A stretch of 64,000 nt of DNA, taken from positions 186,635 through 250,634 of the IMG/VR virus record IMGVR_UViG_3300031133_000383, one strand, 5' to 3'. A program made the position numbers and the translations under genes. A model generated the notes under the pieces. The model searched no databases, was not told the origin of the DNA, and saw only the letters and a program-made list of their open reading frames with translations. Shown here piece by piece: positions 15,031 to 57,675 of this stretch (position 1 is its first letter; every line of letters begins with the position of its first letter). The DNA comes from a virus. Lineage: Duplodnaviria; Heunggongvirae; Uroviricota; Caudoviricetes.

Positions 15031-16266
15031 ATGATTGACGTTAGACAAAATGAATTTGGTAAAAAAGTGGCAAGAAATCTGGCTCCTATTCTGGTTTCAC
15101 TGGTGCAGAATTCTGAACTTTTTTACAGAATCCACCATGATACTGATTTGATTTTCGAATCCAAAATCAATTATAAAAATAGGTATTATATTGTCAAAAT
15201 TGATAATCGTATCACTGTTTCAAGGCAATCTAAATATGACAAAGATGTTTTGGATGACATTTTTGCAACACCCGCTTTGTTCAATAAGGCTTCACCAGTC
15301 ACTCAAAAAGATTATGAGATGGTTGTTGAATATGTATTTTTTATTAATGATACAGAGGCTTTTGCTGAATTCTTTTCTGATATGAACATTGATGATATTA
15401 AACCTTATTACTATTTAATGGACTCAGCAACCCAACTTTATAATGATTTAATGTTGATGGATCTTGAAAGCATCTTTAAATGTAGTCAGCGTTTTTCAAA
15501 AAGTATTAACTTATTTAGTGGAACTCAATATATTCATAAACATATTATAGATAATAAGGAGACGCTTACCTTTGTGGACACTTCAAGGGTAGTCGAAGAA
15601 TTTATTATCTATGAAAAAAATCCAGACAATGGTCATATCAATGTTTATCGTGAATTGGTAGCCAATATTGATCCGAACGTATTTAAAATGAACACTATTG
15701 TCGTAAGTAAGTATAAAAATCTCATTGAACATTGTATCAAGACCCTTGTGCCAAAGTTAATAGTAAAAGATAAAAAGATAATTAAAAACTCTGACTCCAC
15801 TATTATTAAAGTAACAGATGATTTGGCTATTGATTTAAACAATAAATATAAAATAGTAACACAGACAGTGTTTGACAAAAGTCATTTACCAACAATTATG
15901 GATTATCTGTCATATGACAATATTAACTTATTGTATGGTTACGCATTATGGTCTAGTGGGCGAGGAAAATGGGTCAAGGGAAAAAGGGGGTTTTACATCG
16001 TTTTTTCAGACTCTGACGTTCTTAGAGTCAAAAGAATGACTCCCATGCAAATAAACAGCAATAATCTTGGGTATATTGCAAGCACTTCGGAAAACTGTGT
16101 GATGTCCAATATTCCAGAAGGTGTTATTGATCCCGATTGGTGTGAACTGGTTCGAAAATCTTATTGGTTTATGTATCATAATTATGATAAAATCCCTGTT
16201 TGTGATGTTGATGAATTACTTTTGGATAAAGTAGGTCATCAACTTGAAAGGTTATCTATTATCTAA
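15031..16266 (+). CDS. hypothetical protein (411 aa)
   Basis: GGAGAAA SD. Upstream of ligase in same orientation. Confidence 0.6.
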   Translation: MIDVRQNEFGKKVARNLAPILVSLVQNSELFYRIHHDTDLIFESKINYKNRYYIVKIDNRITVSRQSKYDKDVLDDIFATPALFNKASPVTQKDYEMVVEYVFFINDTEAFAEFFSDMNIDDIKPYYYLMDSATQLYNDLMLMDLESIFKCSQRFSKSINLFSGTQYIHKHIIDNKETLTFVDTSRVVEEFIIYEKNPDNGHINVYRELVANIDPNVFKMNTIVVSKYKNLIEHCIKTLVPKLIVKDKKIIKNSDSTIIKVTDDLAIDLNNKYKIVTQTVFDKSHLPTIMDYLSYDNINLLYGYALWSSGRGKWVKGKRGFYIVFSDSDVLRVKRMTPMQINSNNLGYIASTSENCVMSNIPEGVIDPDWCELVRKSYWFMYHNYDKIPVCDVDELLLDKVGHQLERLSII

Positions 16267-22186: not shown

Positions 22187-22203
22187 AGGCTATTCTTTTA
22201 TGG

Positions 22204-23364
22204 TTATATTTTCTTGATTATTTTTTGATTGTTTTTATTTAATACATATTCCATCATTCCAGATTCAGCATATTTTTTACTTTCATTTTCGCCTACAACA
22301 ATAATATCAGGAATTCCTTTATTTTTCCAATTTCTTATTTTTTTTCCTAAAGATTCAGAACTTTCATCTAGCTTACATGATTTTTTATCAAATTTTGAAT
22401 GAAGTAGCTTTGCGTAGTCGGATGATTTTTCAGAAACGGGTATGATTACTGATTTTATTGGATGCAAAAAATCTGGTATATCTTTCCCAAAAGATTCCAA
22501 CAAAATACCAATCATTCTTTCTAGAGATCCAAGAACAGCATGATGCAATATAATAGGACGTTGCATTTTATTATCAGAATCAACATATTCAAGTCCAAAT
22601 CTTTCTGGTAATACATAGTCCAACTGTATAACACCCAATTGCCAAGAACGACCTAGTTTATCTTCCACCTGAAGCTCTAGTTTTGGACCATAAAAAGCCC
22701 CCTCTCCCGGCAATTCTTGAAAATCAAGGTTGTTCATGGCACAAGCTTCACGCAAGGCGGCTTCAGCCTTATCCCAAAGACTATCTTCACCAAACCTTTT
22801 TTCTGGTCTGAGAGCAATCGCATATTTTATTTTTTTGAATCCTAGTTCTTCATAGGCTTTCTTGCTCATATTGATATATTGATTAACTGAATTAATGAGA
22901 TTTTCTGGATTAACAAACACATGACTGTCATCCTGACAAAATTGTCGCTGTCTGAACAATACCTGCAAAGCTCCTGATGCTTCATTACGATACACTTCAC
23001 CAAATTCAAAAATGGGTAAAGGTAATTCTTTATAACTACGTTTTTCGGATTGATAAATTAAAATGTGATTTGGACAACTCATAGGACGCAGTGCATAATT
23101 ACTAGCTTCTGATGAATTCAAGAAAAACATGTTTTCTTTATATTTTTCCATATGGCCTGATTGTTCAAATAAATTAGCTACCACAATTGAAGGACTTTTA
23201 ACTTCAAGATAACCATTATCTTCATGATGTTTTCTAATAAAAGATTTTAGATTTTCATAAAGCTTTAATCCTTCTGGTTTCCAATAAACAACACCTGCAC
23301 TTTCACTTAACATGAAAAGATTCATTTCATTTGCCACTTGCATATATCTTTTTTCTTCATTCAT
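22204..23364 (-). CDS. thrS: threonyl-tRNA synthetase, catalytic + anticodon-binding core only (no N-terminal TGS/editing domains)
   Basis: RPMSCPNH (ThrRS motif), FRQRQFCQDDSHVF, LHHAVLGSLERMIGILLE. AGGAG SD 8 nt before ATG (MNEEKRY) at 23364. Upstream 105 nt of the ORF-finder frame lack an SD. Next upstream gene is on the other strand. Confidence 0.8.
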   Translation of the reverse strand: MNEEKRYMQVANEMNLFMLSESAGVVYWKPEGLKLYENLKSFIRKHHEDNGYLEVKSPSIVVANLFEQSGHMEKYKENMFFLNSSEASNYALRPMSCPNHILIYQSEKRSYKELPLPIFEFGEVYRNEASGALQVLFRQRQFCQDDSHVFVNPENLINSVNQYINMSKKAYEELGFKKIKYAIALRPEKRFGEDSLWDKAEAALREACAMNNLDFQELPGEGAFYGPKLELQVEDKLGRSWQLGVIQLDYVLPERFGLEYVDSDNKMQRPIILHHAVLGSLERMIGILLESFGKDIPDFLHPIKSVIIPVSEKSSDYAKLLHSKFDKKSCKLDESSESLGKKIRNWKNKGIPDIIVVGENESKKYAESGMMEYVLNKNNQKIIKKI

Positions 23365-23651: not shown

Positions 23652-24179
23652 ATGTATATGCCAGACAAACCACTACTTTGTTTTACTGAGTTTAATCCAG
23701 ATTTTATTCAAAAAGCTGATACAATTGTTAAAAAATATTGGTCTGGTGATTTTGATCCTGATCCTTATCAAGAAGGATTTATTGCTGTTCCAAATTTATT
23801 TTCATTTTATTTCTGTGCTGATGAAGGTTATAATAATTTAAAACCCGAAGTTATCTATAAGACTAGGTTTCCTTACTTATCCGAAGACGAAAATGAAGAC
23901 AATTTAGATTTTGATAGTTCAAAAATACATTGTGCTATTTTTTTTCAATGCTCCAATAATGTAAATGTTTCATTGGCTAATTTATTTGAAACTTTACTTC
24001 CAAACTACATCTTTGAAGTGGATGATGGAGCTTTTGTAGTGTCTCCTGATGAGAACCAGCATATTACTTTATTGGAAATTATGTCTTTGCTGACGGCAAG
24101 AGGCTTTATTTATGACAAAGAAAATTGTGACTTTAAAAAGTTTTTTAAAGATTTAGTGGTAATCAAAAGACCTGTATAA
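23652..24179 (+). CDS. hypothetical protein
   Basis: 175-aa ORF, ACAGGAGA SD. Confidence 0.55.
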   Translation: MYMPDKPLLCFTEFNPDFIQKADTIVKKYWSGDFDPDPYQEGFIAVPNLFSFYFCADEGYNNLKPEVIYKTRFPYLSEDENEDNLDFDSSKIHCAIFFQCSNNVNVSLANLFETLLPNYIFEVDDGAFVVSPDENQHITLLEIMSLLTARGFIYDKENCDFKKFFKDLVVIKRPV

Positions 24180-25010: not shown

Positions 25011-26108
25011 CTATTTGGCTTCTTTTAAATTGATCAACAATTCCATTGCTTGCTCTCGATGTTCAACAACAAAACTCTCATAGTCTTGAACAATGATTTT
25101 TAATTCATTGAGATAATCACGAATTGCTTCTTTTTCAAGCTCCGGCTTGAACTTTAACAATTGACTTCCACCAAAGAATTGTTTAACAACCTTACGCCTT
25201 TCAAGAACACTCCATGTTGCGGTTTCACTTTCTTTGAATAGAGGAAAGAGTTCATAGACCCTTTCTTTCCATTGAGCATTATTCAAAGGTGTCTTATTAT
25301 TGAAGTAGTGTTCAGCATTTTTGATTTCAATCCATTTCAGAAAACCATTATACGTAGGACGTTTACGATCTCGGGTTCTTTGTGTATGATTTCGATTTTC
25401 AAACGCATACAACTCTGGATTAAAGAATCTACTTGATGCCGCATACTCATAAACATCTTCCAGTGTATTAAAACCTTTGTGATAACGTTCAATATCATAA
25501 CCAAAGAAATCAAGAGCCAAATCCCAATCATTAGTGAGAACAATGCTTTCAAACAGATTGTCACCATCTCGAAACAAGAAACGCAGACCATCATGACCAT
25601 ATTTCAAGAAACCATTAGAGCTTGCAACAACACCCACTAGATTACCCAAATCATTCCAGTTCAAATAAGAAGAATGAAATTGATAATAATCACGCTCAGA
25701 TGCAATGAGATCAAGCTGAAAGTACACATCAGGCTCATCAGAAGGCAGTCCAATACTGATTACCATATCTTTCTTGTCTTTTGGTTTGTAAGGTAGATGG
25801 CCTTTATGCTCAAATTCAATACGAAGTAATTCCATCAGTTCTTGATAACTGACAAAATCGAAGAGTTCACCATCAACCAGCAAGTCAAGATCACCAAAGG
25901 TTTCCTTTTGACGATAAGCCTTTACTTCATGGGGAGCATCAATAATTTGAGCACCCATAGCATTGGCTTTTGAAATAGCAGCATTTAATACATTGACCAC
26001 TTTTGCAGTCAAACTATCAAAATCTTTTTTGTGAAGACGTTTAGATTGAACGCCAACTCGTTCAGGATTACTGTTCACAATTGCAAGAGCCAATGCATTA
26101 CCACCCAT
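25011..26108 (-). CDS. hypothetical protein (365 aa; weak FGDLDLLV nucleotidyltransferase-like motif)
   Basis: AAGGAG SD. Motif is weak and a G[GS] partner is absent. Confidence 0.6.
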   Translation of the reverse strand: MGGNALALAIVNSNPERVGVQSKRLHKKDFDSLTAKVVNVLNAAISKANAMGAQIIDAPHEVKAYRQKETFGDLDLLVDGELFDFVSYQELMELLRIEFEHKGHLPYKPKDKKDMVISIGLPSDEPDVYFQLDLIASERDYYQFHSSYLNWNDLGNLVGVVASSNGFLKYGHDGLRFLFRDGDNLFESIVLTNDWDLALDFFGYDIERYHKGFNTLEDVYEYAASSRFFNPELYAFENRNHTQRTRDRKRPTYNGFLKWIEIKNAEHYFNNKTPLNNAQWKERVYELFPLFKESETATWSVLERRKVVKQFFGGSQLLKFKPELEKEAIRDYLNELKIIVQDYESFVVEHREQAMELLINLKEAK

Positions 26109-27488: not shown

Positions 27489-28100
27489 ATGTTGATGAAA
27501 AAATTTGATAGAACATTAGCGAGTCGATATCCTGTAGAGGAAACAATCAATCTGAAAAATACACGCTCATGCCGTGGATCTTCTATTCGTTTCAAGTGGA
27601 ATAATATCTATATTGTTAAAAATAGTGGCTATACCGGATGGAATTTAACATTGGATGACATTATTGGTCAATATACTAAAAAAACATTCAATGATTACAT
27701 TTTTGATTTTATTGAGCAGTATAATAAATTTTCAAATTTTTTGAATCTTCCATATCAGTCTATTATCAATAAAATTATTAAGATAGAAGTTGTTTACAGT
27801 GGCAAGAGATTTACTGATTTTAAACGTCCATCCATGATTAAAGTGGAATGGGGCTATAGTTTTTTTCATATTATTCATTTTGATAATGATTATTCTTTTT
27901 ATGAACAATATCGAGGCGAAGATAGAAATAGAAAGGGTGAAGTCTATATTCATCACCCCATTGAAAGCACTTCACAAGCTTTTGTATTAATGTTGAAAAA
28001 CAGCCACGAATTAATTCCTGCCCAATATTGTGTTGATGCTGACAAATCTGAAATAGACTATGCTTCATTAGCAACTTTAGTTGAGATGATGAGTTATTAA
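27489..28100 (+). CDS. hypothetical protein
   Basis: 203-aa ORF. Confidence 0.5.
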   Translation: MLMKKFDRTLASRYPVEETINLKNTRSCRGSSIRFKWNNIYIVKNSGYTGWNLTLDDIIGQYTKKTFNDYIFDFIEQYNKFSNFLNLPYQSIINKIIKIEVVYSGKRFTDFKRPSMIKVEWGYSFFHIIHFDNDYSFYEQYRGEDRNRKGEVYIHHPIESTSQAFVLMLKNSHELIPAQYCVDADKSEIDYASLATLVEMMSY

Positions 28101-28188: not shown

Positions 28189-28217
28189 TTGATTGTTTGA
28201 AAAATATCTGATACTAT
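28189..28217 (+). promoter_or_regulatory. sigma70 promoter TTGATT-17-TACTAT (TG-extended) for tRNA cluster
   Basis: 31 nt upstream of first tRNA. Confidence 0.5.
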
Positions 28218-28247
28218 AGCTTTATGAAATAAATGATGTCAAAATAT

Positions 28248-28326
28248 CGGAGTGTAGGTTAGCCCGGCTTATACCGCCTGCTTTGGGAGCAGGATGTCGC
28301 AGGTTCGAATCCTGCCACTCCGACCA
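28248..28326 (+). tRNA. tRNA-Pro (anticodon UGG), CCA encoded
   Basis: Acceptor cggagtg/cactccg. Anticodon stem cctgc/gcagg with loop tttggga. T-arm gcagg-ttcgaat-cctgc. Long D-loop. Confidence 0.75.
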
Positions 28327-28339
28327 ATTTAATAATAAT

Positions 28340-28417
28340 TGACAGGTAGCTCAGTGGGGAGAGCGGCTCCAAATTTTCGGGAGACGGTCGGGGGTTCAAA
28401 TCCTTCCTTGTCAACCA
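28340..28417 (+). tRNA. tRNA of uncertain identity with atypical (9-nt or mispaired) anticodon loop …cuccAAAUUUUCGggag…; Lys(UUU)-like?
   Basis: Acceptor tgacagg/cttgtca (U1-A72), U8, D-arm gctc-agtgggga-gagc, T-arm ggggg-ttcaaat-ccttc, CCA. Anticodon arm has 2 extra nt. Confidence 0.5.
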
Positions 28418-28426
28418 TCTTTATAT

Positions 28427-28514
28427 GGAAAAGTGGCAGAGCGGTTGAATGCAACGGTCTTGAAAACCGTCGGGTGTAAAAGCCTCGTGAGTTCGAATCT
28501 CACCTTTTCCGCCA
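28427..28514 (+). tRNA. tRNA-Ser (anticodon UGA), type II long variable arm, CCA encoded
   Basis: Acceptor ggaaaag/cttttcc. Anticodon stem acggt/accgt with loop cttgaaa. Variable arm cgggtgtaaaagcctcg. T-arm tgag-ttcgaat-ctca. Confidence 0.85.
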
Positions 28515-28519
28515 GCTTC

Positions 28520-28615
28520 GAAACAACATGGTGAATGGTAGTAGCCAATTAGGTGCAGCGGGGATCGTGCCCCCAAACTAGCTTGGTTCGAATCCAGCAG
28601 TGCATGGTGCAAAAC
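28520..28615 (+). other. tRNA-like element (T-arm ggttcgaatcc present, no foldable acceptor), possibly degenerate tRNA or att-site remnant
   Basis: T-loop consensus. GC hairpin ggggatcgtgcccc. Flanked by direct repeat catggtg(a/c)a at about 28527 and 28606. Confidence 0.3.
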
Positions 28616-30081: not shown

Positions 30082-30372
30082 ATGAAATTGGTACTTGAAC
30101 ATTCAATTGGTGATGGGTATACTTGGAACGTAACTGCTCATGTTCCTTTTGAATACGAATCCAAAGAAAAATTTCTTTATGATTTAATGTCTAAGTGCAT
30201 TGAATGTGTGGATGCACAAGCCTATTCTTTCAAATTTTTGGGTATAGATTTCAAACCTACTGACTTCGGTTATTTTGAATATCCAGAAAAGAGAAAAGGC
30301 TATGATTTTTATCATGCCTTTATTTATACATTGGACGAATGGTTTGAAAAGAATAAAGCACAAGGTGATTAG
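30082..30372 (+). CDS. hypothetical protein (96 aa)
   Basis: TTAGGAG SD then ATG at 30082. Confidence 0.5.
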   Translation: MKLVLEHSIGDGYTWNVTAHVPFEYESKEKFLYDLMSKCIECVDAQAYSFKFLGIDFKPTDFGYFEYPEKRKGYDFYHAFIYTLDEWFEKNKAQGD

Positions 30373-30971: not shown

Positions 30972-31508
30972 ATGAATATTTCTACTCGAAAACTGTTTGC
31001 TGCTCAAAAAATTACAAATATCAAATTTGCAAATGCTCAATTACTCGATATTCCAAAACATAAAACTTTTTCTGACATCTTGCCTATCTTCCAGAATACT
31101 TACATCAAAGATAATCCATTAGAACATATTGATTCTATCGATGATTTTATTCTGGGTTATAATTTATTATTGAACTTAAAGTTGAAAGAATTGGAACGCC
31201 TTCAACTTAAAATACTAACACATGGCATGTGTAAGGAATTATTCAATAATTTTTCAACGATATGTAATACAAAGGAAGATGATACCGGGATCATTAGAAG
31301 TCTTGAAGATAAATGTTTAAAATATAGTAATCTTAAAGCATGTATAGCAGGATTTAAGGCAGCACAAAATCGTCTTATGGAAGTATGTCAATATATTTTA
31401 AAAGAACAATCAATTCGAGATCTTCAAAATGAATGTATATATACCAATTTTTGGGATTTTACGCATGCTGAAATAGTTCGATTTGCTAGCCTGAATCAAG
31501 TTCATTGA
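30972..31508 (+). CDS. hypothetical protein
   Basis: GAGGAT SD before ATG 30972. Confidence 0.5.
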   Translation: MNISTRKLFAAQKITNIKFANAQLLDIPKHKTFSDILPIFQNTYIKDNPLEHIDSIDDFILGYNLLLNLKLKELERLQLKILTHGMCKELFNNFSTICNTKEDDTGIIRSLEDKCLKYSNLKACIAGFKAAQNRLMEVCQYILKEQSIRDLQNECIYTNFWDFTHAEIVRFASLNQVH

Positions 31509-44096: not shown

Positions 44097-46200
<2,104 letters not shown>

Positions 46201-56415: not shown

Positions 56416-57675
56416 ATGCATATTTTTATTAAAGAACTAAAAGACCGTAATCTTATTTCACAAATGACTGATGAAAATAAAATTTCAATTTTGTTAGACA
56501 AGGGTGTTTCGTTATACTGTGGTTTTGATCCAACGGCTGATTCATTACATGTGGGTAGTTTATTACCACTAATCACCATGCTTCGTTTTAAGCGGGCTGG
56601 TCATCGTGTATTCCCCTTGATTGGTGGAGCAACAGGTATGATTGGTGATCCTAGCTTCAAAGCTCAGGAACGTAGTCTTAATGATGTTGATACTGTAAAT
56701 CGGTTTAAATCAGGTATTGCTGCCCAAATTAAAGCAATTCTTGGGGATGTAGAACTGGTTGACAATCATGATTGGACAGCAAACCTTTCAGTTATTGATT
56801 TTTTGCGAGAAGTAGGGAAACATTTCTCAGTGAACAGTATGTTGAATAAAGAATCTGTACGCAGTCGCTTGGATCGTGATGATCAGGGTATTTCTTTTAC
56901 TGAATTCTCATACCAGTTACTGCAGTCCATGGATTTTCATCATTTGTTTAAATCAAAAGGGTGCCAACTGCAGTTGGGCGGTAGCGATCAGTGGGGAAAC
57001 ATTACGGCAGGCATTGATTTGATCCATCGTAAGGAAGGCAATGATGCTGTGGCAACTGGTTTGACTATGCCATTGTTGGTAAAATCGGACGGTACTAAAT
57101 TTGGTAAAAGTGAAAGTGGTGCAGTATGGCTAGCTCCTGATAAAACTTCGGCTTTTGACTTCTTCCAGTTTTGGTTAAAAGTGGCCGATGCTGATATTCC
57201 AAAGTTTTTCAAGATGCTTTCCTTTAGAAGTATTGAAGATATTGATTGTATCCTCGAAGCTGATAAGAATCGTGTAAAACCAGTAGCTCAACAATTGCTT
57301 GCCGAAGAATTAACTGCTTTGATTCATGGTCAAGACGCATTGGATGCAGTTCTTCGAAATAATCAGGCTTTGTTTGACAACAACTTTGACAGCTTACATG
57401 AAAACGATTTTCACATGTTGGTAAAAAACGGTATGAAGTTGATGAAAACACAGGAAAATAACTTATTAGAACTCCTAGTCGCTTCTGGTTTGTCTAAATC
57501 AAAACGTCAAGGTAGAGAGTTTATTCAAAATGGAGCAGTACAGATTAATGGACGAAAAGTCAAAATTGATGAAAATGACATGAACTCTGCCATTATTGAA
57601 GACTTTAAATTTGGTCAGTTTGCTGTACTGCAACGAGGAAAACGAGAATTTATTCTCATTGAAAAGCCCGCTTGA
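56416..57675 (+). CDS. tyrS: tyrosyl-tRNA synthetase
   Basis: YCGFDPTADSLHVGSLLPL (HIGH region), KFGKS (KMSKS), C-terminal S4-like domain. 419 aa. Confidence 0.95.
   Translation: MHIFIKELKDRNLISQMTDENKISILLDKGVSLYCGFDPTADSLHVGSLLPLITMLRFKRAGHRVFPLIGGATGMIGDPSFKAQERSLNDVDTVNRFKSGIAAQIKAILGDVELVDNHDWTANLSVIDFLREVGKHFSVNSMLNKESVRSRLDRDDQGISFTEFSYQLLQSMDFHHLFKSKGCQLQLGGSDQWGNITAGIDLIHRKEGNDAVATGLTMPLLVKSDGTKFGKSESGAVWLAPDKTSAFDFFQFWLKVADADIPKFFKMLSFRSIEDIDCILEADKNRVKPVAQQLLAEELTALIHGQDALDAVLRNNQALFDNNFDSLHENDFHMLVKNGMKLMKTQENNLLELLVASGLSKSKRQGREFIQNGAVQINGRKVKIDENDMNSAIIEDFKFGQFAVLQRGKREFILIEKPA

Follow-up and report, generated by a model that had tools for sequence, protein, structure and literature searches.

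A tRNA-Lys(UUU)-type gene with a 19-nucleotide anticodon arm in a very large phage-like genome

The 64,000-nucleotide (nt) stretch analyzed here, positions 186,635 to 250,634 of the IMG/VR viral record IMGVR_UViG_3300031133_000383 and referred to in its entirety as the window, encodes a lysine-type transfer RNA (tRNA) at 28340-28417 whose anticodon arm is two nucleotides longer than the canonical arm. An orthologue with the same arm length is present in six sister genomes. The analysis documents the gene and its tRNA character, the family to which it belongs, purifying selection on the sister form, compensatory evolution, divergence specific to the anticodon arm, and the codon usage of the window. 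In our best reading, which is plausible and put forward tentatively, the gene would encode a phage tRNA-Lys(UUU) with a remodeled, non-canonical anticodon arm that decodes triplets and is possibly nuclease-resistant.

Two methods identify 28340-28417 as a genuine tRNA gene. ARAGORN, one of the checks proposed in a preliminary description made from the DNA sequence without database searches, calls it a tRNA-Lys(ttt) with the anticodon at position 35, using a 7-nt loop AAUUUUC closed by A.G, and Infernal scores it at 43.1 bits against Rfam family RF00005, above the gathering score of 29. The gene reads TGACAGG-TA-GCTC-AGTGGGGA-GAGC-G-[GCTCC AAATTTTCG GGAGA]-CGGTC-GGGGG-TTCAAAT-CCTTC-CTTGTCA-A-CCA. 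It has a canonical acceptor stem of 7 base pairs (bp), with U1-A72 and one G.U, followed by the 2-nt connector U8-A9, a 4-bp D stem and an 8-nt D-loop with G18G19 and A14. The 5-nt variable loop includes G46, C48 lies opposite G15, and the T arm has a 5-bp stem together with G53, T54, T55, C56 and A58. All 16 pairs of the acceptor, D and T helices are standard, and the discriminator A73 (28414) stands just before the encoded CCA.

A 5-bp stem and a 7-nt loop in the anticodon arm are among the most constant features of cytoplasmic tRNAs. In the window tRNA, position 26 is separated from the variable loop by 19 nt instead of the canonical 17, and the molecule lacks the canonical combination of a 5-bp stem, a 7-nt loop, U33 and a purine at position 37. 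Its sole Watson-Crick pairs in this arm are those of CUCC (28367-28370) with GGAG (28380-28383). As an alternative to the A.G-closed form, the arm can be viewed as 4 bp with a 9-nt loop, AAAUUUUCG (28371-28379), the UUUU run of which lies at 28374-28377. Thermodynamic folding yields this 4-bp, 9-nt hairpin with a minimum free energy (MFE) of -4.1 kcal/mol, and the Infernal alignment places a 9-nt insert where the 7-nt loop would be and flags G27.A43 as non-standard. Direct reading of the sequence bears out the preliminary description in all of these respects: the acceptor arm, U8, D-arm, T-arm and encoded CCA are canonical, the arm has two extra nucleotides, CUCC/GGAG is the only Watson-Crick pairing around the 9-nt loop, and no fold has U33 and a purine 37 in place, the registers giving A33/U37 or U33/C37.

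The unusual arm is not a sequencing artefact. The identical 78 nt are present in the ENA assembly L002, which matches the window over 20.6 kb, and in a distinct strain, L016, from a Joint Genome Institute (JGI) metagenome. The flanks of L016 differ from those of the window by ~1.3% substitutions, a deletion of ~290 nt and 7 nt inserted immediately behind the CCA, and the occurrence of the same tRNA in both L002 and this diverged strain therefore excludes a base-call or assembly error. Such an error had been named beforehand as what would overturn the odd arm, and is ruled out further by the same arm length in the orthologues.

To recover syntenic relatives from metagenomes, loci were anchored on the Band 7 gene, which lies 3 kb downstream, and a DNA pattern specific to the family was used as well. 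In six distinct genomes (L005/L019, L008, L021, L022/23, L024/25 and L035-37), an orthologue of the odd tRNA, referred to as form 2, occupies the same locus as the window gene, ~48 nt after a tRNA-Pro(UGG). Form 2 reads TGAAGGG TA GCTC AGTGGGTA GAGC A GCCTGC-ATTTTGG-GCGGGT ATGTC GG[G/A]GG TTCAAAT CCTTC CTCTTCA A. Its anticodon arm is also 19 nt long and forms six pairs (G.U, C-G, C-G, U.G, G-C and C-G), all of them standard, around a normal 7-nt loop, A32 U33 U34 U35 U36 G37 G38. The MFE structure is a clean cloverleaf at -25.6 kcal/mol that accounts for 55% of the ensemble, the arm alone folds at -8.6 kcal/mol, and the Rfam scores are 46.8-49.9 bits, compared with 43.1 for the window allele. 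These sequences show the two extra nucleotides to be an inherited trait of a small tRNA family, which is new here.

Form 2 is conserved to a degree that its surroundings are not. The tRNA is 99.6% identical among the six genomes, while the 100-nt flanks of the tRNA pair average 68% identity upstream and 67% downstream; form 2 is therefore under purifying selection, and a tRNA with a 19-nt arm is thus a functional gene and not an accident. The single variable site of form 2 exchanges a G.U for an A-U pair. The tRNA-Pro is 97.4% identical among the same genomes.

The window allele aligns with form 2 without gaps and differs from it at 19 of 75 positions, a comparison that is unpolarized, with two allelic states known. 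In the acceptor stem, 4:69 and 5:68 differ on both sides (A-U in form 2 and C-G in the window, and G-C and A-U, respectively), and the anticodon stem has two more such double changes (C-G to U-A, G-C to C-G) as well as U.G to C-G. Across the alignment 98.5% of cells are paired; sliding the partners lowers this to 51-61%. The anticodon arm holds a disproportionate share of the differences, with 10 of 19 positions changed versus 9 of 56 elsewhere (odds ratio 5.8, Fisher p=0.004). What has changed for the worse relative to form 2 is the terminal pairs (G.U to G.A and C-G to A.G) and the loop. The neighboring tRNA-Pro is ~92% identical between the window and the sister genomes, with six differences, a 2-nt insertion or deletion in the D-loop, and compensatory changes in its stems. 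The alignment indicates that the window lineage kept a paired, tRNA-shaped body while one arm was remodeled.

The loops of the two alleles can be compared in two registers. In the gapless register, A-U-UUU-G-G of form 2 corresponds to A-A-UUU-U-C in the window, so that UUU occupies 34-36 and U33 and G37 are lost. In the motif register, the heptamers directly preceding the 3' stem strand (AUUUUGG for form 2, AUUUUCG for the window) are the same at six of seven positions including A32 and G38. The window allele is then longer by two A's 5' of the heptamer, and its 3' half (anticodon, two loop, five stem and five variable bases) is of exactly canonical length. Owing to the UUUU run, both registers have UUU at their center, and the sequence by itself is compatible with the 9-nt loop (U33/C37) as well as with the A.G-closed loop (A33/U37).

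Either way, the molecule has the marks of a lysine tRNA. A73 and the UUU anticodon are identity elements for bacterial lysyl-tRNA synthetase (LysRS), and both are present in the window allele, with UUU at 34-36. The derivation from a tRNA-Lys(UUU) suggested in the preliminary description is upheld by the ARAGORN call, by A73, by UUU in both registers and by the loop A-U-UUU-G-G of the orthologue, while its framing as an expanded loop of the frameshift-suppressor type is not, as the extra bases are a family trait that forms a sixth stem pair in six sister genomes. In bacterial tRNAs that read ANN codons, A37 is the site of the N6-threonylcarbamoyladenosine (t6A) modification; position 37 is a U or C in the window allele and a G in the sister allele. 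AAA leads the codon usage of the window, with 1227 of 18003 codons (AAG has 298), and all three tRNAs of the cluster have U34, matching codons that end in A.

We infer expression, processing, lysylation, triplet decoding and nuclease resistance of the window tRNA along the following lines. In the sister genomes the two extra nucleotides form a sixth stem pair beneath a normal 7-nt loop. In the window lineage the arm would have been remodeled, four Watson-Crick pairs being retained by compensatory change while the terminal pairs became purine-purine (G.A and A.G) and the U-run came to lie one position further 3', giving either a 9-nt loop or an A.G-closed 7-nt loop. The RNA would be transcribed with tRNA-Pro and tRNA-Ser from an upstream sigma-70-like promoter and excised by host RNase P and 3' processing, with CCA already encoded. 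It would then fold into a normal L-shape, be charged by host LysRS through U34-U35-U36 and A73, and read AAA and AAG as ordinary triplets, supplementing or replacing the host tRNA-Lys(UUU) for the most used codon of the phage. The unusual arm may also make it a poor substrate for host nucleases that attack tRNA-Lys(UUU).

Several observations weigh against this proposal. No register combines U33 with a purine at 37, and a pyrimidine 37 beside a weak UUU, with no option for t6A37, should decode poorly. The arm is half as stable as that of form 2 (-4.1 vs -8.6 kcal/mol), and the minimum-energy fold of the whole window tRNA lacks the D-arm. The cluster is also dispensable in the clade: the Pro/Lys tRNA pair is deleted in L026/27, where only a tRNA-Pro stub precedes the tRNA-Ser, and L011/12 and L032/33 have no tRNA in the region at all.

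These features would also suit a young pseudogene, a recently disabled copy of a tRNA with a 6-bp anticodon stem in which loss of the loop-closing C-G and of U33/G37 ended decoding and too little time has passed for the remainder to decay. The lost U33/purine-37 arrangement, the mismatched closing and top pairs, the halved hairpin stability, the somewhat lower Rfam score and the loss of the Pro/Lys pair in another lineage all fit such a history. Against it stand the perfection of every other helix and the intactness of all elbow nucleotides, and the compensatory double changes, two in the acceptor stem and two within the anticodon stem. UUU is retained, as is CCA, which most sister alleles do not encode, and neutral drift does not predict decay limited to one arm. 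The second strain is likewise unchanged, although only about one change would be expected. The pseudogene that the preliminary description had listed among its candidates is weakened by the intact helices, the compensatory changes and the retained CCA, and we consider it less likely than the reading above, though still plausible.

Among known systems, the window gene would, by analogy, work most like a phage tRNA-Lys of the T5 type, the difference being one of architecture and not of point substitution. tRNA-Lys(UUU) is the best-documented target of anti-phage nucleases. PrrC cleaves it in the loop, 5' of the wobble base (PMC12409363, PMC11464382, PMC10264068), and AriB of the PARIS (AriA/AriB) defence system cleaves between positions 40 and 41, on the 3' side of the anticodon stem (PMC12409363, PMC11464382). 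Phage T5 encodes its own tRNA-Lys, which neutralizes PARIS and escapes AriB through substitutions in the anticodon stem (PMC12409363, PMC11464382), and it has been hypothesized that phage tRNAs bear anticodon-loop changes that confer resistance to anticodon nucleases (PMC10264068). Like the T5 tRNA, that of the window is phage-encoded, carries the UUU of the nuclease-targeted host tRNA, has its differences concentrated in the anticodon stem-loop, and plausibly sustains AAA decoding during infection. The T5 tRNA keeps a 5-bp stem and a 7-nt loop with the point substitutions U39A and A41C, whereas the window arm is 2 nt longer and re-registered; resistance and rescue have been demonstrated for T5 and are hypothetical for the window tRNA.

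The 19-nt arm could be viewed as an anti-defence adaptation, in which six pairs, or 4 bp with a 9-nt loop, evade recognition of the PrrC or AriB kind while triplet decoding is kept. The odd arm length and the burst of change confined to that arm in one lineage may fit such a picture of nuclease escape. We rate this specific adaptation as rather unlikely, and similarly low the prospect it carries with it that the window allele is a working triplet decoder with a 9-nt loop and without canonical U33 and purine 37.

Anticodon stems of six pairs have precedents in the pyrrolysine and selenocysteine tRNAs (tRNA-Pyl and tRNA-Sec), allo-tRNAs and mammalian mitochondrial tRNA-Ser(UCN) (PMC7609411), and form 2 resembles these in its six pairs and 7-nt loop. 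The window allele shares the 19-nt arm length but falls outside this class, its first and last pairs being G.A and A.G. tRNA-Pyl and mitochondrial tRNA-Ser compensate by having a small D-loop, 1 nt in the acceptor/D connector and 3 nt in the variable loop, and tRNA-Sec and allo-tRNAs have a 13-bp acceptor/T domain and a long variable arm (PMC7609411). The window family has neither design: its D-loop is of 8 nt with G18G19, its variable loop of 5 nt and its acceptor/T arrangement 7+5, and both U8-A9 and position 26 are retained.

A further alternative is a tRNA-shaped RNA that does not decode at all, either a decoy or sponge for a nuclease or modification enzyme that binds tRNA-Lys, or one element of a Pro-Lys-Ser-non-coding RNA (ncRNA) module for precursor processing. 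It would account for a conserved tRNA body with a remodeled anticodon arm and for the tight RNA cluster, with 9-13 nt spacers and a conserved tRNA-like ncRNA, and the study of AriB raises possible nuclease inhibition by over-expressed viral tRNAs (PMC12409363). A decoy, however, should mimic the anticodon arm of its target and not depart from it, the retained UUU, A73 and CCA are what a decoder needs, and the sister allele looks like a decoder. We regard this alternative as doubtful.

Natural frameshift or quadruplet decoding, of the AAAA or AAAU type, through an expanded loop is very improbable. The 9-nt loop does carry a UUUU run, and expanded loops are a hallmark of +1 suppressors and quadruplet tRNAs (PMC9094753, PMC8324841). 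In the 69 open reading frames (ORFs) of the window, however, 475 of 1223 AAA codons are followed in frame by A (39%, against a background of 34.5%), and so many unavoided AAA-A sites argue against quadruplet decoding, as efficient reading of them would wreck nearly every protein. This is also the outcome for the enrichment of quadruplet or shifty sites that the preliminary description had thought worth checking. Orthologous genes are collinear and of similar length whether the genome has the window allele, form 2 with its 7-nt loop, or no such tRNA, and no frameshift-dependent or split genes were found in the window. Both gene overlaps in the +1 frame are of the ordinary ATGnnnnnTAA start/stop kind. 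Among the +1 suppressors and quadruplet tRNAs (SufB2, sufD and engineered forms; PMC8324841, PMC9094753), the likeness to the window tRNA lies in a loop of more than 7 nt in an otherwise normal cloverleaf, and yeast mitochondrial tRNA-Thr is similarly enlarged, with an 8-nt loop, and still reads triplets (PMC3113583). The classical suppressors and the yeast tRNA have 8-nt loops derived from a single inserted base, while that of the window is of 9 nt (or 7, if closed by A.G), and unlike in the suppressors the extra bases of the window family are stem and not loop in the relatives. Least of all do we credit the insertion of two spurious bases into a normal tRNA, for which no supporting point was found and which the identical copies in independent assemblies and a diverged strain, and the 19-nt arm of orthologues in six other genomes, contradict.

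In this analysis the family turned up in metagenomic contigs only, with no member found in IMG/VR, in GTDB representative genomes or in the deposited phage collection. A search of IMG/VR with the family pattern gave no match, the exact anticodon-arm pattern gave a single chance match there in GC-rich coding DNA with no tRNA, and a flanking 203-amino acid (aa) ORF had no IMG/VR relative. A pattern with a fixed 25-nt center had no match in GTDB genomes; its match in IMG/VR is a suppressor tRNA(CUA) with two extra bases in a 7-nt variable loop, which is a different thing. A blastn search of deposited phages with the window tRNA brought up no more than generic similarity to a cyanophage tRNA-Arg(UCU).

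Of the alleles in the family, only that of the window and those of L035-37 encode CCA. The other form-2 alleles end in A-CAA, A-TCA or A-CAT and would need a CCA-adding enzyme. An ORF resembling Pol-beta-like nucleotidyltransferases (phrog_24943) lies ~2 kb upstream of the tRNA and is conserved in all lineages; it has no match in PDB or NCBIfam. The spacer between the Pro and Lys tRNAs of form 2 is 48 nt long (L005 4843-4890; also in L008, L022, L024 and L035) and contains a conserved hairpin, AGAGTAAC-loop-GTTGCTCT. It is 91% identical between genomes, compared with 67% for the flanks, and the 13-nt spacer of the window lacks the hairpin.

Table 1. Features of the window discussed in the text.
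Feature	Coordinates	Strand	Basis or remarks
Promoter-like site, TTGATT-17 nt-TACTAT, ~30 nt upstream of tRNA-Pro	28189..28217	+	Read from the sequence, 8/12 match
Promoter-like site, TTGACA-18-TATAGT, just upstream of tRNA-Pro	28237-28242 to 28213	-	11/12 match; faces away from the cluster
tRNA-Pro(UGG), canonical except for an enlarged D-loop, CCA encoded	28248..28326	+	ARAGORN; Rfam 61.8 bits
tRNA-Lys(UUU)-type gene, 19-nt anticodon arm, A73, encoded CCA	28340..28417	+	ARAGORN and Rfam; orthologous to form 2 of six sister genomes
Anticodon arm of the Lys-type tRNA: G.A, C-G, U-A, C-G, C-G, then A.G closing 7-nt loop AAUUUUC	28366..28384	+	Sequence
tRNA-Ser(UGA), class II, canonical	28427..28514	+	ARAGORN; Rfam 59.9 bits
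~88-nt structured RNA with two T-arm-like hairpins, directly after tRNA-Ser	28526..28613	+	Covariance model built here
PNKP-type phosphatase	8119-9306		
Threonyl-tRNA synthetase (ThrRS)	22204-23364	-	Reaches TIGR00418 cut-off
Pol-beta-like nucleotidyltransferase ORF	25011-26108		phrog_24943
+1-frame gene overlap, ATGGTAAATAA	35247-35257		11-nt ATGnnnnnTAA
Seryl-tRNA synthetase (SerRS)	44106-45389		
+1-frame gene overlap, ATGAAAAGTAA	45379-45389		11-nt ATGnnnnnTAA
Tyrosyl-tRNA synthetase (TyrRS)	56416-57675		

In the 64 kb of the window, out of a genome of at least 323 kb, ARAGORN and Rfam find three tRNA genes, for Pro(UGG), the Lys-type tRNA and Ser(UGA), with 13 nt between the first two and 9 nt between the last two (Table 1). 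The preliminary description had them as a co-transcribed cluster; the cluster is borne out by these spacers, and co-transcription is suggested by the promoter-like site upstream of tRNA-Pro, which scored below the threshold of the promoter scanner and hence is not among its hits. The sister genomes have TTGACA-17-TATTAT at the corresponding position. A better-matching site just upstream of tRNA-Pro is on the minus strand. In L026, where the Lys-type tRNA is gone, a deletion scar at 7960-8000 fuses the first ~7 and last ~10 nt of tRNA-Pro (CGGAATG-CA-ACTCCGAC), and the tRNA-Ser and downstream ncRNA remain behind a strong TTGACA/TAATAT promoter.

The cluster is followed by an ~88-nt structured RNA that has no matching family in Rfam. 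One of its hairpins is GGGG-TTCGAGT-CCCC, the other is an 8-bp arm whose loop reads TTCGAMT, and its 3' CAGTGCATGGTG is invariant. It lies right after tRNA-Ser, or within ~1 kb of the tRNA pair, in every lineage keeping any tRNA of the cluster (82-110 bits) and is absent where the tRNAs are absent; the copies in relatives are at L005 5914-6001, L008 5167-5254, L021 1414-1500 (minus strand), L022 3574-3661, L024 5271-5358, L026 8100-8189 and L035 8032-8118. In the alignment 95.5% of cells are paired, and four pairs have changed on both sides.

The window is part of a 323 kb source contig, ENA ERZ27247402 k141_253576, and is 31% GC, with 69 ORFs of at least 90 aa covering 84% of its length, about a sixth of which match Pfam. 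Recognizable genes include TyrRS, SerRS, ThrRS, an NAD-dependent DNA ligase, a PNKP-type phosphatase, a NUDIX protein, an S49 protease and the Band 7 protein, and sigma-70-like promoters and Shine-Dalgarno sequences are visible. A 777-aa ORF shares 45% aa identity with hypothetical proteins encoded by two Xanthomonas jumbo phages, XacN1 and Xoo-sp13, and the ThrRS is closest (42%) to that of a 636-kb uncultured phage. Given this ORFan-rich, phage-like content and the phage homologues, the source is taken to be a phage, or a phage-like element, of very large size with a bacterial host. The shared design of the two gene overlaps (Table 1) suggests translational coupling.

The ThrRS consists of the catalytic and anticodon-binding domains only, aligning to residues ~242-600 of E. 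coli ThrRS without the N-terminal TGS or editing domains, and is conserved in all related lineages. This nearby class II synthetase was considered as a partner of the odd tRNA, an idea rejected because the enzyme is a ThrRS catalytic core and not a lysine enzyme. A tRNA-repair pair like that of T4 was also sought; the PNKP-type phosphatase is present, and no RNA ligase partner was recognized in the window.

Homologues of the Band 7 protein at 63-70% identity lie in bacterial contexts without tRNAs; the closest non-phage homologues (L029/L030, GCA_040959605.1 and GCA_040959275.1; L031; L034) are accompanied by an RND efflux pump, type IV pilins, arrays of DUF4116 proteins and IS605 OrfB, and may hint at the host lineage. 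XacN1 (L004, AP018399.1) was dropped as a syntenic relative, since it has a canonical tRNA-Lys(UUU) and no relationship could be detected between its Band 7 gene and that of the window. The XacN1 genome has unusual RNAs of its own: tRNAs with long variable arms (class II shape) and Lys(CUU), Gly(UCC), Thr(UGU), Cys(GCA) and Asn(GUU) anticodons (15564-15652, 24054-24139, 27570-27660, 30203-30291 and 30980-31068), an unannotated 110-nt tRNA-like gene (15283-15392) in which the acceptor, D and T arms are normal but the anticodon arm is replaced by an insert of ~50 nt, and a permuted transfer-messenger RNA called by ARAGORN (22202-22622). Syntenic relatives of the region include big metagenomic contigs, namely Ga0308158_10000001 (L021; 1,859,102 bp), Ga0310131_000001 (L012; 1,539,155 bp), the L019 contig (520,353 bp) and the longest P0001 contig (604,313 bp). 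To our knowledge, contigs of up to 1.86 Mb exceed any reported phage genome (about 0.7 Mb), and those of 0.5 to 1.86 Mb may represent giant phages, other elements, integrated copies or mis-assemblies.

Several very large phage-like genomes thus harbor class I tRNAs of a family whose anticodon arm measures 19 nt, with no compensating shortening and under strong purifying selection, and one lineage would have converted this arm to a 9-nt-loop form with the rest of the molecule maintained. If the window allele is dead, it documents an order of tRNA decay in which the anticodon arm goes first. If these tRNAs decode, they would show a natural tolerance of the bacterial ribosome and LysRS for the geometry of the anticodon arm, which would bear on quadruplet-codon and tRNA engineering, and the arm would be a candidate for a structural escape from nucleases that target tRNA-Lys, as opposed to one by point mutation.

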